DNA of 64,000 nucleotides from an uncultured Eubacteriales bacterium (GTDB lineage Bacteria; Bacillota; Clostridia; Christensenellales; Borkfalkiaceae). The translations under genes were made by a program, and so were the position numbers. Every line of letters starts with the position of its first letter. The first letter of the stretch is position 1. Under the pieces are notes generated by a model, which saw only the letters and a program-made list of their open reading frames with translations, searched no databases and was not told the DNA's origin. Shown here piece after piece: positions 36,906 through 60,510 of the stretch. Location of the stretch: the NCBI GenBank assembly GCA_900540805.1, contig UQHL01000004.1, forward strand, positions 101,323 through 165,322. The letters are read 5' to 3'.

Positions 36906-36926
36906 AGAGATTTCCCCCCGCAATCC

Positions 36927-36955
36927 TTGACAGAAGCTCTTTTTTGTTTTACAAT
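36927..36955 (+). promoter_or_regulatory. sigma-A promoter TTGACA-17-TACAAT upstream of pgi
   Basis: Consensus hexamers with 17-nt spacer, 37 nt upstream of the pgi ATG. Confidence 0.55.
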
Positions 36956-36991
36956 ATGAGTGCAAAAACTTTCTCATCGGAGGAATAGACA

Positions 36992-38425
36992 ATGGGCTAT
37001 AAAACCAAAGAATGGCGCGACAGCATGCGCGTTACGTTAGACTACAACAACATGACCGAAAAATTTCTCGGCGACAAGGGCTTCTCTCCCAAGAAGCTAA
37101 CTTCCTACAATGCGGTGGCCGCCGCGGCCTTCAATTACGTGAAGGAAAACAGGGGCAGGGACGACCTTTACATGGGTTGGACGGAGCTTCCTTACAATCA
37201 GAAAGAGATCGTTGCCGACATTGCGGCCACGGCGAGAAACGTGCGCAGAAAATTTCAGTATTTCGTCGTGCTCGGGATCGGCGGCAGCGCCCTCGGCCCC
37301 ATCATGGCGTTTAACGCGCTCTGCCATCTTCACTATAACGACCTCCCCAAATCGGTGAGAAAAGGCCCCAAATTTTACGTGGAGGACAACGTCGATCCCG
37401 TCAGAATGAGAGACCTTCTCGACGTAATCGACCCCGCCAAGACTTGCTTCAACGTCATTTCCAAATCGGGCGCCACCAGCGAGACGATGACGCAATACCT
37501 CATCATTCTCGACCTGCTGAAAAAAGCGGGCGTCAGCGTCAAGGACAACGTGATCTTCACCACGGACGCCGCAAAGGGAAACCTCAAAAAGATCTCCGAC
37601 GAGGAAGGCGGAATCAAGAGCTACGTGCTTCCCGACGGCGTCGGCGGAAGATTCTCCCAGCTCTGCCCCGTGGGGCTTCTCCCCGCGGCGGTGCTCGGCA
37701 TAGACATCAACGGCCTGCTCGCGGGCGCGGCGTATATGGATAACGTCTGCCGCTATCCTTCCCCCGCCAAAAACCCCGCCCTCATGTGCGCGGTGCTTCA
37801 GGTCGCGGCGATGGAACAGGGCAAAAATGTCGGCGTCATGATGCCCTACTCCGACAACCTCAAATATCTCGCGGATTGGTACTGCCAGCTTTGGGCGGAA
37901 TCTCTCGGCAAAAACGTCACACTCGACGGCAAGCCCTGCAACGTCGGCCAGACCCCCGTCAAATCGCTGGGCGTCACCGATCAGCATTCGCAGGTACAGC
38001 TCTATACGGAGGGGCCGTTCGATAAGGTGGTCACCTTCCTTTCCCTTAAAAAATACGCTTGCGAAATGCCCATTCCCCACGGCTGCGAAAACATTCCCGA
38101 CGTGGCGTTCCTCGGCGGACATACCATGCAGGAACTTATTCAGGCGGAAAACGAGGCCACCGCTTACGCGCTTACGAAGGCGGGCCGAATGAACTATACC
38201 CTCTGGATTCCCGAGCTCAACGCCTTCACCCTCGGCCAGTTGCTCTTTTTGTTCGAGCTTCAGACCGCCTACGCGGGCGCCATGCTGAACATCGACACTT
38301 TCAACCAGCCGGGCGTCGAAGAGGGCAAAAAGGCGACCTTCGCCCTGCTCGGCAAAGCGGGGTACGACTCCAAAAAAGCCGAACTCGACGCTCAACCTGC
38401 GAAAGACGGCAAATATATCATCTGA
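36992..38425 (+). CDS. pgi: glucose-6-phosphate isomerase
   Basis: PGI family motifs (VLGIGGSALGP, SKSGATSET, sugar-isomerase C-terminal region). GGAGG RBS. Confidence 0.85.
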   Translation: MGYKTKEWRDSMRVTLDYNNMTEKFLGDKGFSPKKLTSYNAVAAAAFNYVKENRGRDDLYMGWTELPYNQKEIVADIAATARNVRRKFQYFVVLGIGGSALGPIMAFNALCHLHYNDLPKSVRKGPKFYVEDNVDPVRMRDLLDVIDPAKTCFNVISKSGATSETMTQYLIILDLLKKAGVSVKDNVIFTTDAAKGNLKKISDEEGGIKSYVLPDGVGGRFSQLCPVGLLPAAVLGIDINGLLAGAAYMDNVCRYPSPAKNPALMCAVLQVAAMEQGKNVGVMMPYSDNLKYLADWYCQLWAESLGKNVTLDGKPCNVGQTPVKSLGVTDQHSQVQLYTEGPFDKVVTFLSLKKYACEMPIPHGCENIPDVAFLGGHTMQELIQAENEATAYALTKAGRMNYTLWIPELNAFTLGQLLFLFELQTAYAGAMLNIDTFNQPGVEEGKKATFALLGKAGYDSKKAELDAQPAKDGKYII

Positions 38426-43591: not shown

Positions 43592-45778
43592 TTATTTATT
43601 TTCTTCGGAAATCTGGTTCTGCTTCGATCTGAATATCTTGCGGAGCTGGAACACGCCGCCGCATTCGGGGCAGCGATAGGCAAACGCGCCTTCCTTCACC
43701 GTCAGCTTCGTCGCGCAGTCGGGACAGGTTACCGACCATTTCTTGGGCGGAAGAGGTTTGGAAAGGTCGTCCTCCGTCAAGTCGTCCGCTTCAGGATATG
43801 CAGGCAGTTTATTTTCCTTTCGGGGCTGCTGATAGGCATACGTCTCCATCACCGCTTCCCTGGGAAGAGGCTCTTGGGCGGGTGCGTAAGCGGGCACCAA
43901 AGCTTTGGTCTCCGCCTTCTCAGCGGACGTTTTTGCCTCCTCTGCGTGCACGGGCGCTTCGGCTGCCGTTTCAGCCGCAGGCGCGGGCATTACGGGCGTT
44001 TCAGCGGGCGCAGCAGCAGCCGCAATCCCCGTTTCTTCCGTCACGGGCTGTTTGGCCTTGCGCATCCACTTTTCCGCCAACGCTCTCTCCACGGCGGCCC
44101 GTTCTGCGGCCGTGCGGGTTTCTTTCTTCGCCATAGCCGCTTCCGCGCGGCGCGCTTTCTTATCCGCCGCAGGCGCTTTTACAGCCTCCTCGGTTTTCTT
44201 TTCCGCTTCGGACGAAGCGGACGCCGCCGCAGGTGCAACGGATTCCACAGTCGCGGCGGGTTCCTCCGTTTTCGCTTCCGTGACTATGGGCTCTTCCGTG
44301 GGTTCCTGAACATACTGATACGGGTTAAAGGGACGATACGGACGGCCGTTCACCCATTCCTGGTTGCCGTATCCGTAAGGATTGGGATAGGGATTCATAT
44401 AAGGATTGTTATAGGCATAGCCGTAAGCGGGCTGATTGCCGTCGGGCATGGCGTTTGCGGCAGGCATCGGCGCAGGCGGCATCATCTGCGGCCCTGCAAT
44501 CATAGGCATTACCATCACGGGCTGACCGTTCGGCTGCATAAATACCGCGGGCTGCGTGATGCACTGCAGAGGAACATGGTACATTGCAGGCACATTTGCA
44601 GGCGTTTCCTGCGCCGCTGCGGCGGGCGATTCCTCAACGCGATCCGCCGAAGCCATATTATACGAATCGGGATCGAAATCCAGCTCGTCTTCGTTCTCCG
44701 AAAGGGTCTCTCCGACGGGTTCCTCAACTTTGCCCTTGACGTTGGGCAAACGGCACATACAAAATTCTTCTATCATCGCCGCCAAAGCAATCACGGCGAT
44801 GTAAAGCGTACCCATCGAGGGCACGATGCCGTCGCGTTTCTTACTTGCCACGATCAAGAGAATAAACAGAGCAGCCGACGTAACGAGAAGGAAAATTGAG
44901 AAGATTCTGAAATTCTTCATGCCGTCTCCTTCCTTGCCGTAACGATTGAACTCGGTGTCGGCAGTGGCATGCTTCAACAGCACCAGCGTCCAGACGCAGG
45001 CGAGAAGCTGAACGAAAGGGATCACCCCGTAAACGAAAACGTCCATTTTCGCCTTGAACAATTCGGTGAAAGCGCCTTTTTCCATCCATTTCAACGCATT
45101 GAGCATAAGGTTTGTACGGGAGATAAAATACATGATCAGCCCGACGAACACCAGCTGGGCGAGATTGCGGAAGAAAGGCGCCCATCTGCCGACCAGTCTC
45201 TTTTCTTCCTCGAGCGTGTCGCCCGTGGTAAACCAGCTGACGTTTCCGCCGACGAGCCCGCACCAGAAATGGAAAATCAGCCCTATCGCCACGGCGATAT
45301 AAAACAGATTGGAGAAGCCCGCGCCCGAGATGAGATGAATCATAAACGGGAAGGCGATAAATACGCAATATGTACCCGAGAAAATTTTTCCCATCCGCTC
45401 CATCGCCAGCAGATTGCGGTTATATCCGTTTACCCGCGAAGCCTTTTTCTTGAACAGGCGGCTCAGACGGGACAGCGACTTGATTACGTTGATGACGAGG
45501 GTGAGAAGCATGACGGCGTAAATCAGCGCGACAAACACGTTGACGGAAACCGCGATCGGGGAGGCCTTGATATTTTTAAGCTCGAGAAAGGGCTTCCAAA
45601 AGGTCTTTACCCACATGTCTCCCACGGATGTCCCGTAGAGCATGGGAAAGAAAGCGACCGCAGCGAGAAAAATCGTGGCGATCAGATAGAGCATACCGAC
45701 AAATTCCGCTTTGGAATGTGTTCTGGCAATGCGTTTTTTCAGAGAGACGGGCTTCGTTTCTTTTATATTTTCTTTCAT
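43592..45778 (-). CDS. large membrane protein: N-terminal polytopic domain, P/A/Y/N-rich low-complexity linker, C-terminal CxxC...CxxC zinc ribbon
   Basis: 728 aa. ~9 TM in first 330 aa. Linker with NPYMNPYPNPYGYGN. C-terminal CPDCATKLTVKEGAFAYRCPECGG. Confidence 0.7.
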   Translation of the reverse strand: MKENIKETKPVSLKKRIARTHSKAEFVGMLYLIATIFLAAVAFFPMLYGTSVGDMWVKTFWKPFLELKNIKASPIAVSVNVFVALIYAVMLLTLVINVIKSLSRLSRLFKKKASRVNGYNRNLLAMERMGKIFSGTYCVFIAFPFMIHLISGAGFSNLFYIAVAIGLIFHFWCGLVGGNVSWFTTGDTLEEEKRLVGRWAPFFRNLAQLVFVGLIMYFISRTNLMLNALKWMEKGAFTELFKAKMDVFVYGVIPFVQLLACVWTLVLLKHATADTEFNRYGKEGDGMKNFRIFSIFLLVTSAALFILLIVASKKRDGIVPSMGTLYIAVIALAAMIEEFCMCRLPNVKGKVEEPVGETLSENEDELDFDPDSYNMASADRVEESPAAAAQETPANVPAMYHVPLQCITQPAVFMQPNGQPVMVMPMIAGPQMMPPAPMPAANAMPDGNQPAYGYAYNNPYMNPYPNPYGYGNQEWVNGRPYRPFNPYQYVQEPTEEPIVTEAKTEEPAATVESVAPAAASASSEAEKKTEEAVKAPAADKKARRAEAAMAKKETRTAAERAAVERALAEKWMRKAKQPVTEETGIAAAAAPAETPVMPAPAAETAAEAPVHAEEAKTSAEKAETKALVPAYAPAQEPLPREAVMETYAYQQPRKENKLPAYPEADDLTEDDLSKPLPPKKWSVTCPDCATKLTVKEGAFAYRCPECGGVFQLRKIFRSKQNQISEENK

Positions 45779-46665
45779 TATTTCGCCTCCATAGCCTTCT
45801 TCAGCGAATCGGGCAGGCTGACCTTGGTATTGTTCAGGTTAGAATAGGAAAATACGATAGTTTGCGTCATTTTCGATATCGGGGACGAAACATTCTTCGG
45901 ATCGGTCACGCTTGTCGTATAACGCACGGTCGGACGGCATCCCACCGTAAACCGACATTCGGCTTCGTATTTATCTGCGGCCTGGGCGGGGCCCTTAAAG
46001 CTATATTCCCCCGTCGCGCCGATCAATATCTTGTTTTCCGAAGCGCCGAACTCAAAGATTTCGGCCATGCCTCCAAATGCTTCATAGACCCCATATAAAA
46101 GCAGCTCCGTCCCGTCGATAACGTCGTCTTCGAAAGCCCTTTCAGTCCATTTCGCCTTGTCGCCGAGAACGGAATCGGAAGGATTCGACAAAGCCGTATA
46201 TGTATTCGAGCGGACGTAATATCGATCGCTTTTAGGCTTGGAAAAAGCGTATTCGGCAGCCGTTACCGAATAAGTACGCCCCGACAACGTCGTACTGCTT
46301 ATTTTGATATAGGAATAATCGGCGTCCGTATAAATCATGCCTTCGGTATTTACATCGCTTACCTCTTGTCCCGTTTCCGTTTTATACGTTATGGAATAAG
46401 AAGCATTAAAAGACAGCGTATAAGATTTATATTTTGCGTCTTTATTTGTCCCTTCAAACACCCCTTCCGTCTCATCGACCAGCTTTTTCGTCTCGTCAAA
46501 CCCCTTACGATTAAACACGCTGCCCGTCGTTGCGGCGCCGAAGGGCTTTTCCGCCTTTCCCACGGCGTTTTTGTCGAACATCGTGCCGTAAACCACGGTG
46601 CCGCCCGCCAGTGCGAGAGAAAGAATCAACCCGATCGTCCCGCAGATTCTGCCTTTCTTTTTCAT
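45778..46665 (-). CDS. membrane-anchored/secreted hypothetical beta-rich protein
   Basis: N-terminal signal/anchor MKKKGRICGTIGLILSLALAGG. AGGAGG RBS. Stop overlaps the start of the downstream gene (ATGA). Confidence 0.65.
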   Translation of the reverse strand: MKKKGRICGTIGLILSLALAGGTVVYGTMFDKNAVGKAEKPFGAATTGSVFNRKGFDETKKLVDETEGVFEGTNKDAKYKSYTLSFNASYSITYKTETGQEVSDVNTEGMIYTDADYSYIKISSTTLSGRTYSVTAAEYAFSKPKSDRYYVRSNTYTALSNPSDSVLGDKAKWTERAFEDDVIDGTELLLYGVYEAFGGMAEIFEFGASENKILIGATGEYSFKGPAQAADKYEAECRFTVGCRPTVRYTTSVTDPKNVSSPISKMTQTIVFSYSNLNNTKVSLPDSLKKAMEAK

Positions 46666-47517: not shown

Positions 47518-48048
47518 TTACTTGCCGAACTTATCTTTATACATAGAAATACACTTGTTTATAATTTCCACGGCTTCGTCTCTATGACAGATTTCCTTAA
47601 CCGTCGTCTGTTTATGTTCGAGCGTTTTATAAACCTCGAAAAAGTGCATCATTTCGTCGAATACGTGATTGGGTAATTCATGGATATCGTAATAGCCGTT
47701 ATAGGTCGGGTCTTTGAAGGGAATGGCGATCACTTTCTCGTCCAGGGAACCGCCGTCGATCATTTTGATCACACCGATGGGATAACAGTTGATGAGGGTC
47801 ATGGGATAAATCGTTTCCCCGCAAAGCACCAACACGTCCAGCGGGTCGCCGTCCTCGGCAAGCGTTCGGGGAATAAAGCCATAATTGGCGGGATACACCG
47901 TAGAGGTATAGAGAACGCGGTCCAGCTTCAGAAGGCCCGTTTCCTTATCTAATTCGTACTTTACTTTACAGCCTTTCGGGATCTCGATCAGCGCCTCGAA
48001 GCTTTTCGCTTTTATCCGTTCTTCGGAAATATCGTGCCAGATATTCAT
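47518..48048 (-). CDS. ppa: inorganic pyrophosphatase (family I)
   Basis: EIPKGxKVKYE and DGDPLDVLV motifs. Start at MNIWHDI with AAAGGAG RBS. Confidence 0.85.
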
Positions 48049-48297
48049 AATTAAATCACTCCTTTGGGACGGTCCGTTTATTTGTCTTTTATAATAATAT
48101 TGTATCATACTTTCCGATTTTTCGCAAGAGTTGGAAATAAGCTTTCAAAAATTTCCCCGACGGATATCCCGAAAAAAGACTTTTATAGGTTTACCGTTTT
48201 ACGCGAAAAGGGCAAAAGGCTTTTAATCAGTTGTTTTTTTCAAAAAAACATGCTATAATGGGAACGCTTACCTTAAATCGTTTTTATCGGAGAAACT

Positions 48298-49569
48298 ATG
48301 CTGAAAGAGAAGATGAAAAATTTCGGAAGCAGTATAAAAAGTGCGGTTAAAAATTTCTTTAAGAGAAAAAATCCCGCCCAATTTTTTATCGCGATGATGG
48401 CGTTGAGCCTTATTATATGGCTCGTCAGTTCGCTCATCGTCGGAGAAAAATTTTTCACGGGAATCTTTTTTAATAACGGCACCGACCTTTTTATGGATTA
48501 TTTTAATTCGATCAGAGATGTTTTTCAGGGCATAGGCGTCTATACCGAACGACATGTTATCTATCCGCCTATGGCGAATCTGATTTTTCTTTTGTGCCTG
48601 CGTTTTGTCCCGGACGAATATGCCGCAACTTCTTTTAACGATCGTTATCTATGGGTCAATTATCCTTCGGCAATTTTGTCCTGTTTATTGTTTATACTTA
48701 TTTTTGCCGTTCTGTTTTTATTGCTTTGTCAACGGTATATGCGCTTTAACGGGAAAACAAAGCTCCTTTTTTCTTTTTTCCTGTTGGCCAACGTGCCCAT
48801 GCTTTACCTATTGGAGCGCGGAAATATTATTTTGATTTCCACCCTTTTTACAGGTATCTATATTTTTACTTATGACAGCAAAAGTAAGCTCGCCCGAGAA
48901 ATAGGGCTTTTCTCTCTTGCATTCGCCTTTTCCATTAAATTATACCCCGCCGCGTTAGGTTGGATGCTGATCGCAGATAAGCGCTATAAAGAGGCCTTAC
49001 GGTGCGTAATTTATGGAATTTTACTGCTGATTATCCCCTCGTTTTTTTTCGGTGGGCCGAAATGCCTTATTTGGATGATGGAAAATATATTTTCCTTTTC
49101 GTCGGGAAATAGTGGTTGGGACACAATTTCTCATGCAGTGCATATTCCCGTAATCGTTTTGAAAATAATATTTTATATCGGAATAGTAACCTGCATCGTC
49201 TTTTTTATTCTTTCGTCTTTTTTTCAAAAAGAGCGTTGGAAGGTCTGGACGTTTGCTTGTGCATTATTTATGGCCGCCCCGCCGTTGCATGCCGTTTACG
49301 GTTGGAATCTTTTTCTCATTCCCCTTATTTTACTTTGCAATGAAAAAACATTAAACGGAAAAAATCTTCTATATTTCCTTTTCATTGCTTTTCCGTTTTT
49401 ATTTATTCCCGGGGTCTTTCCTCCCGGCATCTCCAATTCGAATATCACAATAAATGAAGTCGTCATTCTTTTATGTCTTATCGCCCTTCTTATACTTTGC
49501 ATTGTCGATACGTTTTCGGCAATTACAATCAGGCAAAAAGAAAAAAATAATGTTTCCGCTGATTTTTAA
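48298..49569 (+). CDS. polytopic membrane protein, GT-C-like putative glycosyltransferase/polymerase
   Basis: 423 aa with ~11 TM. Loop with acidic residues (TDLFMDYFNS) after TM1. Low-GC. No family confidently recognised. Confidence 0.55.
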   Translation: MLKEKMKNFGSSIKSAVKNFFKRKNPAQFFIAMMALSLIIWLVSSLIVGEKFFTGIFFNNGTDLFMDYFNSIRDVFQGIGVYTERHVIYPPMANLIFLLCLRFVPDEYAATSFNDRYLWVNYPSAILSCLLFILIFAVLFLLLCQRYMRFNGKTKLLFSFFLLANVPMLYLLERGNIILISTLFTGIYIFTYDSKSKLAREIGLFSLAFAFSIKLYPAALGWMLIADKRYKEALRCVIYGILLLIIPSFFFGGPKCLIWMMENIFSFSSGNSGWDTISHAVHIPVIVLKIIFYIGIVTCIVFFILSSFFQKERWKVWTFACALFMAAPPLHAVYGWNLFLIPLILLCNEKTLNGKNLLYFLFIAFPFLFIPGVFPPGISNSNITINEVVILLCLIALLILCIVDTFSAITIRQKEKNNVSADF

Positions 49570-49603
49570 CTGAAGAAACAAACAAGGAAGTCAATTTTCT
49601 ATT

Positions 49604-50662
49604 ATGTACTATGTAAATGAAAATATTAAAAACACAAAAAGAATTTTTCCTCAACAGGGCAGATATGCGTATAAGAGATATGATATGAACGAAAATCCCG
49701 AGGGCCTTCCCAAAGCTTTTGTCGATTCAGTCCTCAAGGAAATCACGCCCGAATTTTTGTCCGTTTATCCCGAGCCTGACCGTTTTCTAAACAAATACGC
49801 TTCTTTTGTCGGGGTAAGCTACGACAATGTCCTTACGACAAACGGTTCCGACACGGCGATACGATATCTTCTCGAAACTTTCGGAGAAACGAAAAAAGAA
49901 GTTGTAACCGTCTCTCCTTCCTTTGAAATGTATGGGGTAAACTGTAACATACTCGGTTTGAAGCACGTCCCGGTCTCCTATGAAAAGGATCTGACGATAA
50001 ATATTGAAAATATTTTGCGCGCGATTACTTCCGATACCCGTGTTGTTGTTCTTTTGAACCCTAATAATCCAATAGGAAACGTTTATACCCGGGAAGAAGC
50101 GGAACAAGTGATTATCAAGGCACAACAAGTCGGAGCAATCGTTATTATAGATGAAGCTTATCACTACTTTTATAGACATACCTTTCTCGATTTTATCGAG
50201 CGCTATGACAACGTAGTTATTTTAAGAACTTTTTCAAAGCTTTTTTCGCTCGCCGCTTGTCGATTGGGGGTAATACTCGGCAATCCGGCGTTGATTTCTT
50301 ACGTAAAAAATGCCCGGTTGACATTTGACGTCAACTCCGTCGCTTTACTTTTCGGTGAACGGATTTTAGAGCGTCCCGAGTTGATTGAGTATTTAATAAA
50401 ACGGCAGGAAGAAGGAAAGAGTTACACGCTTAACCGCTTGAAGGAATATGGTTATGAATATCGGGACTGTAAAGGGAATTTTATCTTTATCAAGCCTTTG
50501 CATGACGCAAGGACTATCGCGGAAAAGCTGCGTGAAGAAAAAAAAGTTTTAGTCCACGCTTACGGCAATCCCCTATTAAAGGACTATATACGTGTTTCCG
50601 TCGGATCAATCGACGCAATGAAGATATTTCTAAATGCGTTCTTCGAGGTCGATCACAAATAG
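49604..50662 (+). CDS. class I/II PLP-dependent aminotransferase (histidinol-phosphate aminotransferase-like)
   Basis: LNPNNPIGN and the PLP-lysine context FSKLFSLAACRLG, characteristic of HisC/CobD-like enzymes. Confidence 0.8.
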   Translation: MYYVNENIKNTKRIFPQQGRYAYKRYDMNENPEGLPKAFVDSVLKEITPEFLSVYPEPDRFLNKYASFVGVSYDNVLTTNGSDTAIRYLLETFGETKKEVVTVSPSFEMYGVNCNILGLKHVPVSYEKDLTINIENILRAITSDTRVVVLLNPNNPIGNVYTREEAEQVIIKAQQVGAIVIIDEAYHYFYRHTFLDFIERYDNVVILRTFSKLFSLAACRLGVILGNPALISYVKNARLTFDVNSVALLFGERILERPELIEYLIKRQEEGKSYTLNRLKEYGYEYRDCKGNFIFIKPLHDARTIAEKLREEKKVLVHAYGNPLLKDYIRVSVGSIDAMKIFLNAFFEVDHK

Positions 50663-50692
50663 CTTTTGCTATAGGATAAGGGAAAACAAAAG

Positions 50693-52021
50693 ATGAAAAA
50701 AGTAATAACTTACGGTACGTTTGACATGCTTCATATTGGTCATATCCGTTTGCTGGAAAGAGCAAAGGCTTTAGGCGATTATCTGATTGTAGGGATTACG
50801 TCCGCAGGCTTCGATATGGCACGGGGAAAACTGAATGTCCGGCAAACTTTGACCGAGCGCATAAAAGCCGTTATGAATTTAGGAATAGCCGACGAAGTCA
50901 TTGCCGAAGAGTACGAAGGCCAAAAAATCGACGACATCAAACGCTATAACATTGATATTTTCGCTATCGGTTCCGATTGGGAAGGAAAATTTGATTATTT
51001 GAAAAACTATTGCGAAGTAGTGTATCTCGAAAGAACAAGGGGAATTTCAAGTACGGAAATCCGTTCCCGCAACGTTATACGAATGGGTATTGTAGGATAT
51101 TCTTCAATGTCGGAAAAATTTATTGAAGAATGCAAATATGTAAACGGCATAGAAGTACAGGCTATTTATACAAAATCTTACCCTCCTCCCGCTGCTTTGA
51201 GTTTTAAGGAGGCAAATGCCTGTTATCTCTTTGACGACTACGAAAAATTTCTTTCTGAAATTGACGCCGTCTATATCGTCTCCGATCCAAAGACGCGATA
51301 CGGCTACATTAAAAAAGCACTCATTGAGAAAAAGCACGTTTTGTGCGAATCTCCCGTTTCTTTAAGCCGTGAACAAACCATCGAACTGATCACGTTGGCA
51401 CAGTCGAAAAATCTCATTCTTTTTGAAGGCATAAAAACAGCCTACGTCCTTGCCTTCTCTCGACTTATTTCGCTTGTTCGCAGCGGAATTATAGGGGCAG
51501 TTAAATCCATCGATTCTACTTGCACCAGTTTAAGAAGCACTTCGGAAAATAACTGGGGAAGTCTGCTCGATTGGGGCGCGATCGCCATACTTCCGATTTT
51601 TGAAATTCTCGGTACGGAGTATATAAAAAAAGATATCATTTCCTATTTCGGCAATGCCGACGATATCGATCTGTTCACGAAAGTATCTTTTATTTATCCA
51701 AAAGCAACTGCGTCCTTAAAGGTCGGCATAGGCGTCAAATCGGAAGGAGAATTGGTTATTTCGGGAACGCGCGGTTATGTCTATGTTCCCGCTCCCTGGT
51801 GGAAAACGGAATATTTTGAAATCCGTTTTGAAAATCCTGCTGAAAACAAGAGATACTTCTATTCGCTGCATGGCGAAGGCATAAGATACGAGATATCCGC
51901 CTTTTCTGAAATCATTCAGAGAAAAACGGAAAATTATTATATTAATAACGATATTACCATTGCGATCAGCGGATTAATGGAAGATTACTGTAATAAAAAA
52001 GACGTAACGCTTATTTGCTAA
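50693..52021 (+). CDS. bifunctional protein: N-terminal TagD-like cytidylyltransferase fused to Gfo/Idh/MocA oxidoreductase
   Basis: N-terminus YGTFDMLHIGHIRLLERAK (HxGH nucleotidyltransferase motif). Residues ~130-440 carry a Gfo/Idh/MocA Rossmann + C-terminal fold. Confidence 0.75.
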   Translation: MKKVITYGTFDMLHIGHIRLLERAKALGDYLIVGITSAGFDMARGKLNVRQTLTERIKAVMNLGIADEVIAEEYEGQKIDDIKRYNIDIFAIGSDWEGKFDYLKNYCEVVYLERTRGISSTEIRSRNVIRMGIVGYSSMSEKFIEECKYVNGIEVQAIYTKSYPPPAALSFKEANACYLFDDYEKFLSEIDAVYIVSDPKTRYGYIKKALIEKKHVLCESPVSLSREQTIELITLAQSKNLILFEGIKTAYVLAFSRLISLVRSGIIGAVKSIDSTCTSLRSTSENNWGSLLDWGAIAILPIFEILGTEYIKKDIISYFGNADDIDLFTKVSFIYPKATASLKVGIGVKSEGELVISGTRGYVYVPAPWWKTEYFEIRFENPAENKRYFYSLHGEGIRYEISAFSEIIQRKTENYYINNDITIAISGLMEDYCNKKDVTLIC

Positions 52022-52067
52022 ATTGTTTGCCCTTCAATCGCACTGCGTTTTTTACAAAGGAGAAAGT

Positions 52068-52871
52068 ATGGAAAAGCTGGAAAAAATTCATTCGGTTCTT
52101 TTCGATATGTTGAGAGAAATCGCCTCTTTATGCGATAAATATGAGATCGAATATTTTTTAGATTCGGGGACGTTATTGGGTGCGGTAAGGCATCAGGATT
52201 TTATTCCTTGGGACGACGATGCCGATATCGCAATGAAAAGAAGCGAATATGAAAAATTTCTAAAGGTAGCGGACGAGCTTCCCAAGCCCTATCTTTTGAT
52301 TCAACCGCAAGATTATGGCGGATACTTTTTTGATTTTGCGCCGCGCGTCCTCAATATGGATGAACCTTTACATACGGAAACACACGAAGACATTGCACAA
52401 AATAACTATCAAAATCGTATGGCCGTCGATATTTTTTTATTGGACAATGCCCCTGATGACTTAAAAGCATTCCACAAGATGGTATTAAAGCAAAAAATCT
52501 TTTACGGATATGCAATGGCGCATCGTTTCAATAAAAAAATGCATTCGCATTCTTTAAGTGAAAAGCTGAAAATTTTTATTTTATCTTTTCTGGGAAAATT
52601 CCATTCTCTTAAAAACATTTTGAAAAAGCAAGAATGCTTAAGCACTGCTTACAACAAAAAAGACACCAACTACTATTGTTTTACAAACGTTATTCTTAAA
52701 GAAATCGGGAATCGTTATTCAAAAGAATGGTTTGATTCCTCCGTGAAGCTTCCTATACGCGACGCTCTCTTTACCTGTCCCGCGGGATACGATAAAACGC
52801 TGACTGCTTTATACGGCGACTATATGACGCCTCTGCCTCCGGAAGAACGCTATCCCTCTCATATCGATTAA
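52068..52871 (+). CDS. LicD family phospho-alcohol transferase (uses CDP-activated alcohols)
   Basis: FLDSGTLLGAVRHQDFIPWDDDADIAM, the hallmark LicD motif. AAGGAGA RBS. Confidence 0.8.
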   Translation: MEKLEKIHSVLFDMLREIASLCDKYEIEYFLDSGTLLGAVRHQDFIPWDDDADIAMKRSEYEKFLKVADELPKPYLLIQPQDYGGYFFDFAPRVLNMDEPLHTETHEDIAQNNYQNRMAVDIFLLDNAPDDLKAFHKMVLKQKIFYGYAMAHRFNKKMHSHSLSEKLKIFILSFLGKFHSLKNILKKQECLSTAYNKKDTNYYCFTNVILKEIGNRYSKEWFDSSVKLPIRDALFTCPAGYDKTLTALYGDYMTPLPPEERYPSHID

Positions 52872-52936
52872 ATTTAGATAAGGAAAAAACCGCTGCATTT
52901 TGCTATTATCAGCAGTAATTCAAAGGAGGAAATTAG

Positions 52937-53400
52937 TGGATAAAATCGCCGTGCTCGTTCCCTGCTACAACGAAAGCAACACGATCGAAAAGGTAGTAAA
53001 CGACTTCCGCCGCGTCCTTCCCGACGCGATCATTTACGTGTATGACAATAATTCCACCGACGACACCGCGGCCATTGCTCTTGCAGCCGGAGCGGTAGTT
53101 CTGCACGAATACATGCAGTGAACAGGAAACGTGATCCGAAGGATGTTTCGGGAAATCGACGCCGAATGCTATATTATGGTGGACGGAAACGATACGTATC
53201 CCGCGGAAGCCGCGCCCGAAATGGTGCGTAACGTTTTGGAAAAAAACAGCGATATGGTCGTCGGCGATCGCCCTGATCATGTGGTTCGGAGTAAATATCT
53301 GTCACGGAAATTATAAACTGATAAAAATCATTTCCACCGCCGTCGTTATGGTGTTCAACTTCGTCACAAAAAAATTGACTCTCTCTAAAAGATAAACTTT
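52937..53400 (+). pseudogene. family 2 glycosyltransferase (DPM1/GtrB-like), disrupted: in-frame TGA after ...VLHEYMQ plus internal deletion/frameshift
   Basis: 52937..53121 encodes VDKIAVLVPCYNESNTIEKVV...DNNSTDDT. An in-frame TGA is then followed by ...NVIRRMFREIDAECYIMVDGNDTYPAE... (53131..53316). A C-terminal TM remnant (ISTAVVMVFNFVTKK) sits in another frame. Confidence 0.6.
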
Positions 53401-53435
53401 TTCCAAAATTTCGGTAAAGGCCTCGTCGATTAAAT

Positions 53436-54686
53436 ATGAAATTTAACTCTCTGTTTGAAAAAGAAAATAGAAAAAAGATGGGCGACCTTTTTCTGAACAT
53501 CGGGGCGACCGCCCTGTTCAATCTCGTCATTCAGTTTGCTCTGTATCCCTATCTGAATAAAACGTTGGGAAAAGAAATGTACGGGACTGCGCTTTTTATG
53601 CTCTCTCTCGTCGCCATAGCCTCGGGCTCCTGCGGAACCGCGGCCAATTATTCGCGGTTAGTGAGCGAAAAAACGCTTCGTCCCTCCAACGGAGACTACA
53701 ATCTTTTTCTGCTTGTCGGCGGAATACTTTGCGCCGCAGTCGGTCTTTTTTATCTTTGGTGGATAAAGCTTCTCACCCCTATAACGGCAATTCTTTTCGC
53801 GGCGCTTCTCATCGTCACCGCTTTCCGTTATTATTCCGATGTGGAGTTTAAGTTAAAGACCTCTTTCGTCCGCTATTTTTTCTTTTATCTCGCCATTTCC
53901 GTCGGATATCTTCTCGGGCTTCTCGTCTATCGAAAGACAAATCAATGGATGACCGCCCTTCTGACGGGCGAAATTTTCGGCCTCGTCTATGCGGCCTTTG
54001 CAAGCAGGATCTACCGTCATCCCCTCTTGCGCCCCTCTCAAAGCTTCGGACTCGTCCTGAAAAGCATTTCTTTTCTTCTCCTTTCCAACCTTCTGGAAAA
54101 CCTCACGTTAAACGCCGACCGCCTGCTCCTATATTCTTTCGTGGACGGAACGGCGGTCTCCGTCTATTATACGGCGTCTCTTTTCGGAAAAGTCGTAGCG
54201 CTGCTCACCGTCCCCGTCAATTCGGTAATCATCAGCTATCTGATCCGCTACGACAAGGAGCTGTCGAAAAAAATGTGGAGCGTCTTTACCATCGGCGGAA
54301 TTGTCTGCGGCGCAATCTGTTTAGGCGCATGTCTCCTGTTTTCGGGGCTTATTCTGCCGCATTTCTACAACGACTTATACGCCGCCTCTAAGCCCTATCT
54401 GTTCCCCGCCATTCTCAGCCAGATTCTCTATTTCGTTTCGGGCGTGCTGTTGGTGGTGCTGCTGCGCTTCCGCGGCGAAAAGAAACAATTTTTTCTCAAT
54501 CTGGGCTATGCGATCGTATTTTTTGCGCTCACCTTAATCGCCACTTATCTTTTCGGCCTGAACGGCTTTGTGTGGGCCTCCCTGTTGGCTAACGCCCTCC
54601 GACTGGCCGTCGTCATTCCCTGGGGCTTTTTGCCGCCCCGCCGAAAGGCGGCTCCGCCTCCGCCGGAAGAAACCGAGCAATCTTAA
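53436..54686 (+). CDS. oligosaccharide flippase (Wzx/MOP family)
   Basis: 416 aa with ~12 TM. N-terminal GDLFLNIGATALFNLVIQFALYPYLNKTLGKEMYG typical of polysaccharide biosynthesis flippases. Start ambiguous (53436 or 53478). Confidence 0.7.
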   Translation: MKFNSLFEKENRKKMGDLFLNIGATALFNLVIQFALYPYLNKTLGKEMYGTALFMLSLVAIASGSCGTAANYSRLVSEKTLRPSNGDYNLFLLVGGILCAAVGLFYLWWIKLLTPITAILFAALLIVTAFRYYSDVEFKLKTSFVRYFFFYLAISVGYLLGLLVYRKTNQWMTALLTGEIFGLVYAAFASRIYRHPLLRPSQSFGLVLKSISFLLLSNLLENLTLNADRLLLYSFVDGTAVSVYYTASLFGKVVALLTVPVNSVIISYLIRYDKELSKKMWSVFTIGGIVCGAICLGACLLFSGLILPHFYNDLYAASKPYLFPAILSQILYFVSGVLLVVLLRFRGEKKQFFLNLGYAIVFFALTLIATYLFGLNGFVWASLLANALRLAVVIPWGFLPPRRKAAPPPPEETEQS

Positions 54687-54842: not shown

Positions 54843-57800
54843 TCAAAATAATGACAATTGCTGTGCCCACGGCTTTTCGAGTGCTTTTTCTCTCTTTACA
54901 TTCGAAGGCAATTCCGCAAGAAACGGCGAAGGATCGCCTCTGGTTGTCAAAACGAGCTCCTCTATTGCGCGGGTAATGCCCACGTAAAACAGGCGGCGTT
55001 CCTCTTCCTCGTCCGTTTCCCGCGAAGAAACGAGCGGCAGTACCTTTTCGGTAAGTCCGCAGAGGAATACGACGGGGAACTCCAACCCCTTGGCGCCGTG
55101 CAGCGTAGCCAGTCTCACGGCTCCCGCGGCCGCGTTTCCGCTGGGGAGCAAAACGTCGCCCTCCTTGCCCAGATACACCGCGTCGAGAAATTCGTCCATG
55201 GCCGCGTAATGCGCGGCTTTTATCAGTTCTTCAAATTCCGCGGAAGTTAAATGCAGATATTCCTTCCAGGCCGTCAAAATTTTTCTCGGTCTGCCTCCGA
55301 TAAGCGGCAGAAATTTTTCTTTCGCCGCTTCAAAATTTTCGCGCCCGCCCATAAATTCCAACGCCTGCGCTTCAGCCGCTTCGTTCTGCGCGAGCAGGGC
55401 GGCAAAAAACGCAAGGGTACCGCTCACCGCGGGCGCTTCGAGAAATTCCGTCTTACCCGAAACGACGCAGGGAATGTCGTCTCTCCTTAAACAATGCTCG
55501 ATTTGGGAAAGCTGGCGATGCGTGCGCGCAAGCACCGCAATCTCTCCAAATTCCCGCAGCCCTTCCTCCCTGCCTTTGCCGAGCATGTCCAGCCCGCCCG
55601 TCATGCGCGCGATTTCTTTGGCCACAAATATCCCCTCGGAAAGCTCCGAAGCGCAATCGACCAAACGAACGGCCGCCCCCGACGGCTTGCACGCCTCGAG
55701 CACGCGCGCGCCCGAATTATGCGAAACGACGTTCAGCGCGCAATCGATCACCTCGGGCGTCGAGCGGTAATTTTTCGTCAGCCGCACGGTAAGCGCGTCG
55801 GGATAATCCGCCGCCAGCATTGAAAAACAATCGGACGCGGCGCCGCGGAAGGAATAAATGGCCTGATCGGGATCGCCGATCGCAAACAGCCGCCCCTCTT
55901 CGCCCAGCCACAGGCGGATCAGCTCGTACTGCGCGGGATTGACGTCCTGAAATTCGTCCACGTGCAGATAACGGAATTGTTTTCCCTTTATCTTTCGCTT
56001 CAGCGCTTCGGAGATGAGATCGTCGTAATCCAGCATTCCCGCCGCCCTCAAGCGTCGGTTATATTCCGCCGCCGCGTCCGTTTCCGTCTCTTTGCCGTTT
56101 TTCACGGCGGATACATGATTCAAAAATTTGCGGGGAGCAAGCTTTATCCCGTATTCCGCGACGACCTCGGCCGCGGTTTTCAGCATAAAAGCAGGGTTCG
56201 CCAAAGCGAATTCGTCTTTCAAAAAGGAAAAACAAATTGAGTGAAAGGTGCCCACGGTAATCTTTTCCGCCGCTTTTTTCAACCGCGCCGAAAGCCTTTC
56301 GCGCATTTCGGCCGCGGCTTTGACCGTGAACGTCACCGCGGTAATCTCCGCAGGCTTCACGCCGCTTTCCACCAGGCGCACGATCCGCTCTACCAGCGTA
56401 AACGTCTTGCCCGTGCCGGGGCCGGCGACGACCGCCGTCACGCGCGCTTTGCTGTCCGCCGCGGCTTCCTGTTCGGCGTTTATTCCGCGAGGGTCTCTCT
56501 CCCCGCTTTCGTTTTCGTTTTTTTCTTCTTTCCCCTTTTTGAATTTTTCCCCACGGTCGGTTTCCCCGTCCCGCGCGGCCGCAAGGGGTAAGTCGCTTAA
56601 AAAAGACATCTGCCCGCTTGCGTTTTTCAGCTCGTCGGGGGTAAAGAGAGCTATTTTACCGTATTCTCCGTCATATCCCGCCGTTTTGATAACCCGTTCC
56701 TCGCGCAGCCGCCTTATGCCTTCGGCTATCCTCTCGCCGCCGGCCTTCTCAATATCGCCGAGCGAGCGGACGCGCAGGATTTCCGCCTCCGCCCCCAGCT
56801 TTGAAAGCAGCTTACAATATACCCGTTCCGCCTTATCGCCCGACGCGGAAATCCCCAGCGACGCGGCAATCACTTCGGGCAGGGGCATGAGATACTCGAA
56901 ACGTTTTTCTTTTTCGGAAATATATGTCTCGTCCCGTTCCGCCAACTGCTCCAGCCTGTTGAGTACCCCGATCGTGATTTTTTTACCGCAAACGGGACAT
57001 TTCCCCCCCAGCGCCCGCGTCTCCTGCGGGGTCAGTCTGAGATGACAGGCTCTGTGCCCGTCCAGATGGTATTTACCCTCCTCGGGAAAAAACTCGACGG
57101 TGCCGAGGAAGCCTTCCCCCGTATCGAGCGTCCGCTTAAGTGCGGGGTAGGAAAGCTCCGCATCTATCAGATTGCTTTCCCTGCCGAGCTTGGCGGGAGA
57201 ATGAGCGTCGGAATTGGAGACCAGCGTGTAGCGGTCCAACTGCGGAACGCGCCGATTCATGCGGGGATCGGAGGAAAGCCCCGTCTCCATGGCGCGGATA
57301 TGCGGCGCCAGGTCTCCGAAGCATTCTTCGACAGTATCGAAGCCCGAAAAAGCGCCGAACATAGAAAAATGCGGCGTCCAGATATGGGCGGGAATAAAGA
57401 TCGCTTCGGGGCATATTTCCAGCGTTATTGCGAGGAGGTCTTTCGACGACAACCCGAGTATCGGCCTCCCGTCCGAACGGATATTTCCGATAGTCTCCAG
57501 CTTCAGTGCCAGGCGTTCGGCGGCGTCGAGAGAGGGCAGCAGAATCAGATTATGAACCTTCCGCACCTTTCCGTCCTGCTTATAAATACAGCTGATCTCC
57601 CCCGATACCACGAAACGGGGTTCTATGGAAAAGTCGCAAAAATCCTTCAACCGTTTTTCAGGCTTGATACGATACAACCCCTCTTCCGCGGGTTCCAGCG
57701 TATCGGCCATCTCCCCGCGCCAGGCGGGATGCGTAAAATCGCCCGTTCCCACCAGCTCTATCCCTTTCCGACGCGCCCAAAAATCCAGATTGGGAATGTC

Positions 57801-57860
57801 TCCGTTTTTGCTTGTCGCTCTCGAATATTTCGAGTGAATGTGTAAGTCCGCTATATACAT
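54843..57860 (-). CDS. fusion protein: N-terminal EndoQ-like PHP-domain nuclease with zinc finger + C-terminal compact UvrD/PcrA-type SF1 helicase
   Basis: N-terminus MYIADLHIHSKYSRATSK..., SNSDAHSP, CPVCGKK (EndoQ/TIGR00375-like). C-terminus has Walker A AGPGTGKTF, DEFQD, YRST and GAKGLEFPVV helicase motifs. Start set at 57860 after promoter TTTACA-17-TATAAT. Confidence 0.75.
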   Translation of the reverse strand: MYIADLHIHSKYSRATSKNGDIPNLDFWARRKGIELVGTGDFTHPAWRGEMADTLEPAEEGLYRIKPEKRLKDFCDFSIEPRFVVSGEISCIYKQDGKVRKVHNLILLPSLDAAERLALKLETIGNIRSDGRPILGLSSKDLLAITLEICPEAIFIPAHIWTPHFSMFGAFSGFDTVEECFGDLAPHIRAMETGLSSDPRMNRRVPQLDRYTLVSNSDAHSPAKLGRESNLIDAELSYPALKRTLDTGEGFLGTVEFFPEEGKYHLDGHRACHLRLTPQETRALGGKCPVCGKKITIGVLNRLEQLAERDETYISEKEKRFEYLMPLPEVIAASLGISASGDKAERVYCKLLSKLGAEAEILRVRSLGDIEKAGGERIAEGIRRLREERVIKTAGYDGEYGKIALFTPDELKNASGQMSFLSDLPLAAARDGETDRGEKFKKGKEEKNENESGERDPRGINAEQEAAADSKARVTAVVAGPGTGKTFTLVERIVRLVESGVKPAEITAVTFTVKAAAEMRERLSARLKKAAEKITVGTFHSICFSFLKDEFALANPAFMLKTAAEVVAEYGIKLAPRKFLNHVSAVKNGKETETDAAAEYNRRLRAAGMLDYDDLISEALKRKIKGKQFRYLHVDEFQDVNPAQYELIRLWLGEEGRLFAIGDPDQAIYSFRGAASDCFSMLAADYPDALTVRLTKNYRSTPEVIDCALNVVSHNSGARVLEACKPSGAAVRLVDCASELSEGIFVAKEIARMTGGLDMLGKGREEGLREFGEIAVLARTHRQLSQIEHCLRRDDIPCVVSGKTEFLEAPAVSGTLAFFAALLAQNEAAEAQALEFMGGRENFEAAKEKFLPLIGGRPRKILTAWKEYLHLTSAEFEELIKAAHYAAMDEFLDAVYLGKEGDVLLPSGNAAAGAVRLATLHGAKGLEFPVVFLCGLTEKVLPLVSSRETDEEEERRLFYVGITRAIEELVLTTRGDPSPFLAELPSNVKREKALEKPWAQQLSLF

Positions 57861-57865
57861 ACTTT

Positions 57866-57894
57866 CATTATAACCTTGTTTTTCGGATTTGTAA
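57866..57894 (-). promoter_or_regulatory. promoter TTTACA-17-TATAAT for the nuclease-helicase gene
   Basis: Minus-strand hexamers immediately upstream of the ATG at 57860. Confidence 0.45.
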
Positions 57895-58062
57895 AGAATA
57901 CAAACGGTTTTCGGCAGGATTTTTTTAATAAATTTTATAAAACCGATCAAAAGTCAAAACCCCTTACCTCCCCTTCCGCAAATAACCCTATCCGTCGAAA
58001 AAATCAAAAGCCGACGACATACTTTTTCCAAAAAAACACCGACGTGAAAATTATTTTGTTGC

Positions 58063-59230: not shown

Positions 59231-59650
59231 CTATTTGCTCTCAGTTGGAGCATTATCAACTAAGGCATTTACATCAATAGGTTGGAGCAAAATAGGGGTT
59301 AAACCAGGTTGAGTAGTTAATAAAGAAACTTGGCTACGAATAAACGGCATCATAATTGCTACCGTATTCTTTTTTAAAATCTCATTAGCAATTTCTTCAC
59401 TAAAATTTTCTCTTTCCAGTCTAAAAAATCCTAAAGCAGTTAAACTTAAATCAAAATTTTTCTCTTCATCAAATATTGTTGTGACTATTTGAATTTTTAC
59501 TTGATTTCTATCATCATCTTTTTCCGCATAGTCAATATTATAAGTTGACAATAATTTTAACGGTTTACCGTTTCCTTTAAATTTGAAAGAATACGCCGGA
59601 AAATAGAAACTGATCATTTCCAGCTTACTCTTGAACTCATTATCACCCAT
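59231..59650 (-). CDS. SecB-like chaperone (third component of a toxin-antitoxin-chaperone module)
   Basis: C-terminal half VAIMMPFIRSQVSLLTTQPGLTPILLQPIDVNAL matches the SecB signature region (cf. E. coli ...LFPYARE...FPxLNLxPVNFDAL). Confidence 0.6.
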   Translation of the reverse strand: MGDNEFKSKLEMISFYFPAYSFKFKGNGKPLKLLSTYNIDYAEKDDDRNQVKIQIVTTIFDEEKNFDLSLTALGFFRLERENFSEEIANEILKKNTVAIMMPFIRSQVSLLTTQPGLTPILLQPIDVNALVDNAPTESK

Positions 59651-59674
59651 TATAAGGTCTCCTTTTTTGTAATT

Positions 59675-60076
59675 TTAGGCAGCCGTCTCAACCGTATCAA
59701 TGAGCGTATAACTCCCTGATAGGTCGTAACATCCCTTCATCTCTACCGGTAATTGCATCTTTATCGGCGAAAATGCAGTTTGAAAATCTTTCTCTTCTCC
59801 GTTTTTATCGACCACTGTTACTTTTCGAATTTTTTCTAACAACTCTGGATTCTCGGAAATAAGAGAAAACAAAACCGCGCTACTTCCAACAACCTTATTA
59901 GTCCCCTGTTCCCATTTTTCTACTGCTTTTTTAGTAACTCCCATCACGTTCGCTAAAGCAATCTGGGTTAATTTAAATTTCTTTCTGAAATCTTTAACAA
60001 ATTTACTGCTAATATCAATTTCAAGATAAGAAACAACCACCCGCTCACTGTTCATTAGTCCATTAATGTTGATCAC
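59675..60076 (-). CDS. HTH (XRE/HigA-MqsA-like) antitoxin with C-terminal extension (putative chaperone-addiction segment)
   Basis: LTQIALANVMGVTKKAVEKWEQG HTH. ~60 extra C-terminal residues. 4-nt overlap with the toxin gene. Confidence 0.6.
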   Translation of the reverse strand: MININGLMNSERVVVSYLEIDISSKFVKDFRKKFKLTQIALANVMGVTKKAVEKWEQGTNKVVGSSAVLFSLISENPELLEKIRKVTVVDKNGEEKDFQTAFSPIKMQLPVEMKGCYDLSGSYTLIDTVETAA

Positions 60077-60510
60077 TTTTGGCCTCCATTTAACTCTTTA
60101 ATATATTCATCCACAAGCTCTTTTAATTTATTCCGATCGCTTGCGGAAATATTCTCGTTTTCGCCGTGTCCATGTCTATATATATGTAAAAGATATCCGA
60201 AATGGTTAATGTTATCTACAAGGACTATACAACGATATCCGTATGATTTTCCTTCTCCTCTTTCTTTATCATCGCTTCTAAGCTTCGAATAGTTTGCCTT
60301 TCTTTCTTCCCCCCAATAAATAACTTGATAAGAAGGTCTGTTTTCTCCCATCTTTAATTCTTCAGCAATATTTTGCGCAATTCTTGCCAATTCCTCTTTC
60401 CGTAATTTCTGTCTTTTTATATCTTTGATTATATTATAGGGAGTAAAAGGTTTAAATTCTTCCTGTATTTCTTCAAAATTAAGGCTGACTTTATATTCTA
60501 CATACCCCAT
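60073..60510 (-). CDS. putative RelE/ParE-superfamily toxin (HigB/Gp49-like)
   Basis: C-terminal ...YGYRCIVLVDNINHFGYLLHIYRHGHGEN...RNKLKEL resembles HigB-type toxins (cf. M. tuberculosis HigB1 ...HEANNHFRVLFFRWG). First gene of the toxin-antitoxin-chaperone order. Confidence 0.45.
   Translation of the reverse strand: MGYVEYKVSLNFEEIQEEFKPFTPYNIIKDIKRQKLRKEELARIAQNIAEELKMGENRPSYQVIYWGEERKANYSKLRSDDKERGEGKSYGYRCIVLVDNINHFGYLLHIYRHGHGENENISASDRNKLKELVDEYIKELNGGQK

Follow-up and report, generated by a model that had tools for sequence, protein, structure and literature searches.

A widespread aminotransferase and cytidylyltransferase module in an uncultured Eubacteriales bacterium that may place a phospho-amino-alcohol on a cell-envelope glycan

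Positively charged and zwitterionic head groups on surface polymers control cationic-peptide resistance, autolysin and phage binding, and host immune recognition, and those known include D-alanine, phosphocholine, phosphoethanolamine and aminoethylphosphonate. In Streptococcus pneumoniae, WchX and Gtp1/Gtp2/Gtp3 reportedly constitute a cytidine diphosphate (CDP)-2-glycerol pathway, said to have been described by Wang and co-workers in 2010. The pneumococcal 23F genes are annotated as a glycerol phosphotransferase (wchX), a dehydrogenase (gtp1), a nucleotidyl transferase (gtp2) and a phosphotransferase (gtp3) (PMC3493582). In the PntC-LicD systems for 2-aminoethylphosphonate tailoring, an aminotransferase makes the amine right before cytidylylation (Rice et al. 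2019, PMC6697681). Moreover, two enzymes convert dihydroxyacetone phosphate (DHAP) to serinol phosphate, namely Campylobacter jejuni Cj1437, which yields the (S)-form (PMC11800397), and RtxA's N-terminal domain (PMC3222319). Here we compare with these systems a four-gene cassette at positions 48298-52871 of a 64,000-nucleotide stretch of DNA from an uncultured Eubacteriales bacterium (contig UQHL01000004.1, positions 101,323 to 165,322; the whole stretch is referred to as the window). The cassette combines a HisC-like aminotransferase (AT), a cytidylyltransferase-oxidoreductase fusion (CT-OR), a LicD-family phosphotransferase and a GT87-like membrane protein.

The window holds an unremarkable copy of a module that is very widespread. 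We hypothesized that the cassette and a resident Wzx-like flippase put a phospho-amino-alcohol on a cell-envelope glycan, a proposition that we regard as evenly balanced, and for which we only infer the identity of the amino-alcohol and of the acceptor glycan. Domain profile and structure searches recovered, each in its place, every gene that the original prediction made from the letters of this DNA had named:

48298..49569, plus strand: GT87-like polytopic membrane protein of the GT-C glycosyltransferase type, 423 aa, about 9 hydrophobic segments, first gene of the cassette
49604..50662, plus strand: AT, a HisC-like class I/II pyridoxal phosphate (PLP) aminotransferase, 352 aa (Aminotran_1_2, E 4e-44)
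50693..51073, plus strand: TagD-type cytidylyltransferase (CT) domain, CT-OR residues 1-127 (CTP_transf_like, E 4e-18)
51074..52021, plus strand: Gfo/Idh/MocA-fold oxidoreductase (OR) domain, CT-OR residues 128-442 (GFO_IDH_MocA, PF01408, 61.7 bits, E 1e-16)
52068..52871, plus strand: LicD-family phosphotransferase, 267 aa, counted from its ATG (the mechanical open reading frame starts at TTG 52023) (PF04991)
52936..53395, plus strand: pseudogene of a family 2 glycosyltransferase (GT2) with a GtrA-like C-terminal remnant, in-frame TGA at 53119-53121, C-terminal half lost
53436..54686, plus strand: Wzx-like flippase of the MOP superfamily, 416 aa, fold match to WzxE

The evidence for a module comes from gene linkage, which was followed in an AT-centred sample of 80 species-representative loci (62-74% identity) drawn from 359 species with a match. 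CT-OR lies within 150 bp of AT in 58 of these loci and within 1.3 kb in 4 more, so that the pairing of the fusion with a HisC-like enzyme, which had been predicted to be unusual, is the rule (62/80). Eighteen loci have AT without the fusion; in 11 of them an unrelated nucleotidyltransferase of the LicC/MobA type lies no more than 1.5 kb away, and contig ends cut 5 of the other 7, and AT thus stands beside some nucleotidyltransferase in 73/80. The LicC-type variants lack an oxidoreductase and combine LicD with an AT-family member (~65% identity) and a LicC-type nucleotidyltransferase, as in Centipeda periodontii, where the order is LicD, AT, nucleotidyltransferase. A LicD or TagF-type transferase was found near AT in 39 of the 80 loci, and the whole set of CT-OR, AT, LicD, GT87-like protein and MOP-like flippase recurs together in an unrelated metagenome-assembled genome (L087).

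The census of fusion partners added to these loci eight CT-OR fusions that were sampled without regard to AT. An aminotransferase adjoins seven of the eight: a class V enzyme in six cases (357-358 aa, PhnW-like at 161-166 bits, below the cut-off) and a HisC-like one in a single case, the remaining fusion being accompanied by an acetolactate-synthase-like thiamine pyrophosphate (TPP) enzyme and a short-chain dehydrogenase/reductase (SDR). Fusions with differing partners are equally similar to that of the window (70-75% in the CT domain, ~50% in the OR domain), and they do not group by partner: neighbour joining placed 39 HisC-partnered fusions under the last node common to the six class-V-partnered ones. 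The aminotransferase and the nucleotidyltransferase have thus each been swapped for a non-homologous one, while the pairing persists.

The further neighbours of this pair are informative as to its product. In Ruminococcus albus 7 pRUMAL01 (L099, 7040-12810), which also has three LicD paralogues, a GNAT acetyltransferase adjoins the AT-fusion pair; in L095 (4890-11310) a GNAT enzyme occurs beside the pair with FkbH, acyl carrier protein, MaoC and SDR genes; and in L104 (3693-7350) the pair adjoins an opine dehydrogenase. These three variants imply N-acylated or N-carboxyalkylated derivatives. Taken together, the swapped AT, the swapped nucleotidyltransferase and the neighbours that modify amines speak for a module whose product, an alcohol phosphate bearing an amine, is activated with cytidine triphosphate (CTP).

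AT itself is not the HisC of the histidine pathway. It scored 239.7 bits against TIGR01141 (hisC), under the equivalog cut-off of 276.55, and it lies in a cassette of 40% GC and is linked to a nucleotidyltransferase across species; we do not regard it as a housekeeping HisC. That it should be an ordinary histidine-biosynthesis HisC, placed beside surface-glycan genes by chance, is vanishingly unlikely. It is true that hisC is the top-scoring named family and that its top matches in the PDB are all histidinol-phosphate aminotransferases. However, genuine HisC representatives are only 31-36% identical to AT, the cassette stands in a genome of 55% GC, the family keeps its nucleotidyltransferase neighbours from species to species, and no his genes were seen in those AT loci that have annotated neighbours.

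The PLP motifs of AT, N152-P-N-N-P156 (NPNNP.G), D183-E-A-Y186 and RTFSK (S211-K212, with the Schiff-base lysine), are invariant across 20 homologues and align with those of Thermotoga maritima HisC. The family is tight (62-76% identity), with a best match of 74% identity in the scan of species-representative genomes, and its carriers include Lachnospiraceae, Oscillospiraceae, Erysipelotrichaceae, Anaeroplasma-type Mollicutes and Negativicutes (Centipeda, Acidaminococcus, Mitsuokella). Carriers of the module that are in culture include Ruminococcus albus 7, Acidaminococcus intestini DSM 21505, Centipeda periodontii DSM 2778, Anaerosacchariphilus hominis NSJ-68 and Laedolimicola spp. A protein cluster contains an annotated member at 49% identity from the archaeon Methanomethylophilus alvi, which suggests inter-domain transfer of the module. 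No streptococcal member was found by searching the representative library and the cluster names, which gave only metagenome proteins, Methanomethylophilus alvi and Paenibacillus, and a tblastn search of a plasmid collection with AT gave no match.

We predict that AT is, most plausibly, a DHAP to serinol-phosphate transaminase. Enzymes of the HisC type interconvert R-CH2-C(=O)-CH2-OP and the corresponding 2-amine, and we propose DHAP as the substrate because it is the simplest abundant molecule of that shape. A different use of PLP would be the decarboxylation of a phospho-amino acid, in the manner of CobD or Cj1436, with the resulting ethanolamine phosphate or aminopropanol phosphate being cytidylylated and transferred by LicD. 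This route could draw on the membership of AT in the HisC/CobD fold group (149 bits with the CobD model), on the conversion of L-serine phosphate to ethanolamine phosphate by Cj1436, which is encoded in a capsule locus (PMC11800397), and on the homology between the CT domain and human ethanolamine-phosphate cytidylyltransferase (3elb, E 8e-15). We consider it very unlikely, since AT is far closer to HisC than to the CobD-type decarboxylases, which came lower among the PDB matches (6oux at 57 bits, 1lc5 at 48 bits), and since sister loci have a PhnW-like class V transaminase in its stead, which makes transamination the shared chemistry. The phosphonate (aminoethylphosphonate) pathway was rejected as well: neither the window nor the sister loci contain a phosphoenolpyruvate (PEP) mutase or a phosphonopyruvate decarboxylase.

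CT-OR is one gene, as had been predicted, and not a plain TagD with a separate gene downstream: it is a single uninterrupted reading frame (50693-52021, 442 aa) with CTP_transf_like at residues 5-126 and GFO_IDH_MocA at 129-246. Its CT domain carries the invariant residues HxGH (H14, G16, H17) and R114-T115-x-G117-x-S119-S120 (RTxGISS), is ~50% identical to TagD (E 4e-37 with the PDB structure 1coz), and scored 116.9 bits against the TagD equivalog TIGR01518, under the cut-off of 165.4. The fusion was also thought to be unusual, a view that did not survive the search with it, which gave at least 8000 matching protein clusters, all of the 8000 scored being at E <= 0.001; among those scored, the nearest relatives from other species are 55-61% identical, and a scan of viral contigs with CT-OR gave no match.

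The OR domain has the two-domain Gfo/Idh/MocA fold (Rossmann plus alpha/beta). Its model (predicted local distance difference test score, pLDDT, 83) matched in Foldseek 4had, 3e9m, KijD10, 4iq0 and GnnA at target template-modelling (TM) scores of 0.8-0.85. The canonical catalytic lysine is absent, residues 219-221 reading ESP where the PDB homologues carry EKP, and further downstream WNSLxxWGPTALLP stands in place of GGGxxx[DE]xGx[YH]. In a set of 185 fusions, the residue between E and P of E-X-P was S 142 times, T 13 times, A 10 times and K 5 times, with G, F and Y among the other residues of the Firmicute fusions, and the lysine is replaced in ~95%. The alignment of fusions has 10 invariant positions in the Rossmann half and 46 in the C-terminal half, including a PAPWWKT.YFE.RFE block. 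The loss of the lysine makes a redox role doubtful, and judging by these residues the domain probably no longer carries out canonical hydride transfer. It may have been kept for substrate or ligand binding or for assembly, or it may use a non-canonical redox mechanism. If the OR domain is degenerate, it would clearly exemplify a dehydrogenase fold that has outlived its catalytic residues.

We suggest the following sequence of events. First, AT would transaminate a small keto-phosphate to an amino-alcohol phosphate, most plausibly DHAP to serinol phosphate. Secondly, the TagD-type domain would, from its family and its linkage, condense the product and CTP into a CDP-amino-alcohol, for instance CDP-serinol. 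Thirdly, LicD, going by its family, would take the phospho-amino-alcohol off its CDP donor in the cytoplasm and attach it to a hydroxyl on a sugar of a glycan that is lipid-linked or still nascent. Finally, as their co-occurrence suggests, the Wzx-like protein would flip the lipid-linked unit and the GT-C protein would link it, on the outer side of the membrane, to a polymer of the wall. In the original prediction the aminotransferase, oxidoreductase and cytidylyltransferase would jointly generate a CDP-amino-alcohol for LicD. The conserved module of AT, cytidylyltransferase and LicD bears this out in part, and comparative genomics points to an amine; however, the oxidoreductase step is called into question by the replaced lysine and by the LicC-type variants, which do without that domain.

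Several observations weigh against this scheme. We found neither serinol phosphate nor any other amino-alcohol phosphate reported on the glycans of these organisms in the literature that we searched. The TagD-type version of the module never occurs without the OR domain, and this, together with the high conservation of the C-terminal half of that domain, means that the domain has a function that our model leaves unexplained. Furthermore, EKP has been kept in some HisC-partnered fusions (L048, L056, L090, L091), and a redox step may be ancestral or may still be used in these. The pneumococcal cluster wchX-gtp1-gtp2-gtp3, whose annotated roles agree with those here in three of its four genes, yields glycerol-2-phosphate and no amine (PMC3493582). 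Lastly, a GT2 enzyme that possibly primed the acceptor is dead in this locus, and the system may thus be partly defunct in this lineage, or the acceptor may be supplied from elsewhere.

The pneumococcal precedent leads to an alternative in which the cassette, as a counterpart of WchX/Gtp1-3 or TarIJ, makes a glycerol-phosphate donor: OR would reduce dihydroxyacetone or its phosphate to glycerol or glycerol phosphate, CT would form CDP-glycerol or CDP-2-glycerol, LicD would transfer glycerol phosphate, and AT would be auxiliary or serve another purpose. The correspondence of annotated roles speaks for this (PMC3493582; PMC1391919), as does the likeness of the CT domain to TagD. So does a CT-OR fusion in an O-antigen/capsule-type locus of Escherichia coli E04, which is flanked by insertion sequences (L098, NZ_CM143912.1, 880671-884087). 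This fusion is 48% identical to that of the window, has GTGRIA, CEKP and ELGSY intact, and adjoins a TagF-type glycerophosphotransferase and a HAD-IB hydrolase, with dTDP-3-amino-sugar genes beside them; no aminotransferase is adjacent, which shows that the fusion can work without AT. With its EKP and its HAD-IB neighbour it is possibly, by analogy, a closer counterpart of pneumococcal Gtp1-3 than the window cassette is, and its nearest relatives are the few HisC-partnered fusions that still carry EKP. For the cassette itself, however, we judge a glycerol-phosphate product unlikely. The lysine has given way to S, T, A, G, F or Y in nearly all of the Firmicute fusions and the downstream Asp/Tyr-His motif is unconserved; an aminotransferase from one or the other of two unrelated families accompanies the fusion in all but one of the independently sampled cases; an amine is implied by the GNAT and opine-dehydrogenase genes in the neighbourhood; the annotation of gtp3 is that of a phosphotransferase and not of an aminotransferase; and the CT domain stays under the TagD equivalog cut-off. 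We infer instead that an ancestral, active reductase-cytidylyltransferase of the TarIJ or Gtp kind was recruited into an AT-dependent pathway, in which hydride transfer then became dispensable.

A further alternative places the chemistry at the level of the nucleotide. In six Lachnospiraceae contigs (L001-L006, 6249-10073) CT-OR is flanked by a TPP enzyme and an SDR, with no AT. In the PDB, the TPP enzyme was closest to 5ahk, which we take to be the ketone-accepting YerE homologue of Pseudomonas protegens. By analogy with YerE/YerF branched-chain logic, this variant suggests a C-branched CDP-alditol. In this alternative CT would form CDP-glycerol and OR would oxidise its C2, giving CDP-dihydroxyacetone as a hub from which AT would make CDP-serinol and the YerE-like TPP enzyme and SDR a branched product elsewhere. 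Such a hub would account for a constant CT-OR core whose partners (HisC-like AT, class V AT, TPP enzyme with SDR) vary without phylogenetic segregation, and it would suit the structural neighbours of OR that act on nucleotide-linked sugars (the 3-ketoreductase KijD10 and the UDP-GlcNAc 3-dehydrogenase GnnA), as well as the EKP kept in some AT-partnered fusions. An obligatory oxidation is nevertheless hard to reconcile with a lysine that is lost or variable in most fusions, the window's included. In the 11 loci where the AT family goes with LicD and a LicC-type nucleotidyltransferase, an oxidoreductase is absent, which argues that the substrate of AT is a free central metabolite, and enzymes of the HisC and PhnW types are known for small phosphate or phosphonate substrates, not nucleotide-linked ones. 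We therefore hold this route to be distinctly unlikely.

Returning to the proposed phospho-amino-alcohol cassette, its composition bears on its origin and extent. The predicted fall in GC to ~40% across 47.4-53.4 kb was confirmed, windows of 1 kb at 47.5-53.5 kb having a GC of 0.38-0.41 against 0.53-0.59 in either flank. By per-gene composition, only the four consecutive plus-strand genes at 48298-52871 look foreign, with a GC of 0.38, 0.41, 0.40 and 0.38 in the order 48298-49569, 49604-50662, 50693-52021 and 52068-52871, and a GC at third codon positions (GC3) of 0.40-0.44, compared with a host GC3 of 0.56-0.65 and a genome GC of ~55%. The GT2 fragment (GC 0.52) and the flippase (GC 0.50, GC3 0.61), which had been counted as part of the low-GC island, are host-like, as are the flanking genes and ppa. 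The four-gene cassette (GT87-like, AT, CT-OR and LicD) was thus most likely acquired by horizontal transfer. SpoIIE is encoded upstream of the cassette, which indicates that the host is a spore-forming Firmicute.

Three metagenome contigs from the same species show an arrangement identical to that of the window, down to the same 61-aa GT2 fragment, and the pseudogene is consequently fixed in the lineage. Its joined fragment (52936-53280) scored 46.5 bits with Glycos_transf_2, and the tail matched the last 35 model positions of GtrA_DPMS_TM at 19 bits. LicD covers model positions 1-227 of 227 in PF04991 (131.8 bits, E 5e-38), and the start called in the conspecific contigs is that of the 267-aa version; at the level of its family it would use a CDP-alcohol donor, with which a cytidylyltransferase gene immediately upstream is consistent. 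The GT-C protein scored 22.5 bits with Pfam GT87 (cut-off 25), and its orthologue in L087 scored 47.3 bits. The flippase had no Pfam match, while its AlphaFold model (pLDDT 88) was closest in the PDB to the lipid III flippase WzxE (TM 0.66-0.69), followed by MurJ and MATE, which agrees with the MOP fold of two 6-helix bundles. Proteins homologous to it go by the name O-antigen/teichoic acid export protein, and PF01943 is present in the more distant of them.

The inorganic pyrophosphatase gene ppa (47518-48108, minus strand) lies immediately upstream of the cassette. It was rejected as part of it, on account of a host-like GC3 and its place as a core neighbour in all conspecific contigs, and is probably there by chance; it would nonetheless pull the pyrophosphate-releasing cytidylyltransferase reaction. 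On the other side the cassette is directly flanked by a minus-strand gene (54843-57950) for a 1035-aa fusion of an N-terminal TIGR00375 (PHP-like) domain and a UvrD/PcrA-type helicase. Elsewhere in the window, a stretch of 34-36% GC at 57.5-61.5 kb holds three consecutive small minus-strand genes (59231-60510):

59231-59650, minus strand: SecB-like chaperone (PF02556, 38 bits)
59675-60076, minus strand: MqsA/helix-turn-helix antitoxin-like protein
60073-60510, minus strand: RelE-like protein (weak match)

Their order is that of toxin-antitoxin-chaperone systems, and the region varies among conspecific contigs, L100 having PPK/Ppx there and L101 and L102 a prophage-like block with integrase and Bro-N. 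Two minus-strand reading frames with overlapping stops at 43592-46665 (728 aa and 295 aa) had no Pfam or NCBIfam match and are conserved in the conspecific contigs. A second flippase of the Polysacc_synt type (35406-36905) adjoins a phosphoglucose isomerase gene within 35406-38425, and another stretch of lower GC (0.42) occurs at ~4-9 kb.

If a phospho-amino-alcohol is indeed installed, then the gut microbiota of humans and animals would possess a surface chemistry that is both new and common, and with it a novel CDP-activated metabolite, as the module occurs in hundreds of gut species (the 359 species representatives) and the fusion protein in thousands of protein clusters. In the literature that we could search we found no paper on the pair of AT and CT-OR or on such a CDP-amino-alcohol donor, and no product assigned to the module. 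Tentatively, and with more doubt than conviction, we propose that CDP-serinol or a close CDP-amino-alcohol is an unrecognised nucleotide-activated donor, and that phospho-serinol is a zwitterion-forming decoration of cell-wall and capsular glycans, widespread among Firmicutes of the gut, Negativicutes and certain archaea. Its synthesis would fall to a core of two genes, for an aminotransferase and for a cytidylyltransferase fused to a pseudo-dehydrogenase, a core that would have been re-partnered repeatedly (with a class V aminotransferase or a LicC-type transferase) and elaborated by N-acylation, opine-type N-carboxyalkylation and C-branching.

In comparison with known systems, the module shares with pneumococcal WchX/Gtp1-3, as far as annotated roles go, a LicD-type transferase, a dehydrogenase, a nucleotidyl transferase and an adjacent flippase (PMC3493582, PMC1391919), whereas the pneumococcal genes are separate and the fourth is a phosphotransferase in place of an aminotransferase. 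Cj1437 and Bradyrhizobium RtxA-N, compared by activity only, resemble the predicted first step in that they carry out PLP-dependent transamination of DHAP from a surface-polysaccharide or secondary-metabolite locus (PMC11800397, PMC3222319). C. jejuni differs in what follows, serinol phosphate being ligated by an amide bond to glucuronate at the expense of ATP and then dephosphorylated, with no CDP activation and no LicD. The locus recalls the three-component glycosylation systems GtrABC and CsbB-YfhO in having a flippase, a GT-C-like protein and a GT2 whose tail is GtrA-like; here, however, GT2 is a pseudogene and there is an extra CDP-alcohol branch, which Gtr systems lack. In architecture the module recalls the pairs of reductase and cytidylyltransferase that serve CDP-ribitol and CDP-2-glycerol synthesis. 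TagD, TarIJ and Bcs1 likewise couple a cytidylyltransferase (by fusion in Bcs1) to a reductase that prepares an alditol phosphate, and TagF- or LicD-type transferases use their products, but in the module the reductase partner belongs to another fold family and has lost its catalytic lysine, and the conserved partner is an aminotransferase. The phosphocholine system LicABCD and PntC-LicD, finally, resemble the module in activating a small charged head group with CTP for transfer by LicD to a surface glycan. Choline kinase or transporter, PEP mutase and phosphonopyruvate decarboxylase have no place in it; instead it has a TagD-type nucleotidyltransferase fused to a Gfo/Idh/MocA domain and a HisC-like AT, and the head group that we predict for it is a phosphate ester of a C3 amino-alcohol. 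The module does have LicC-type variants.

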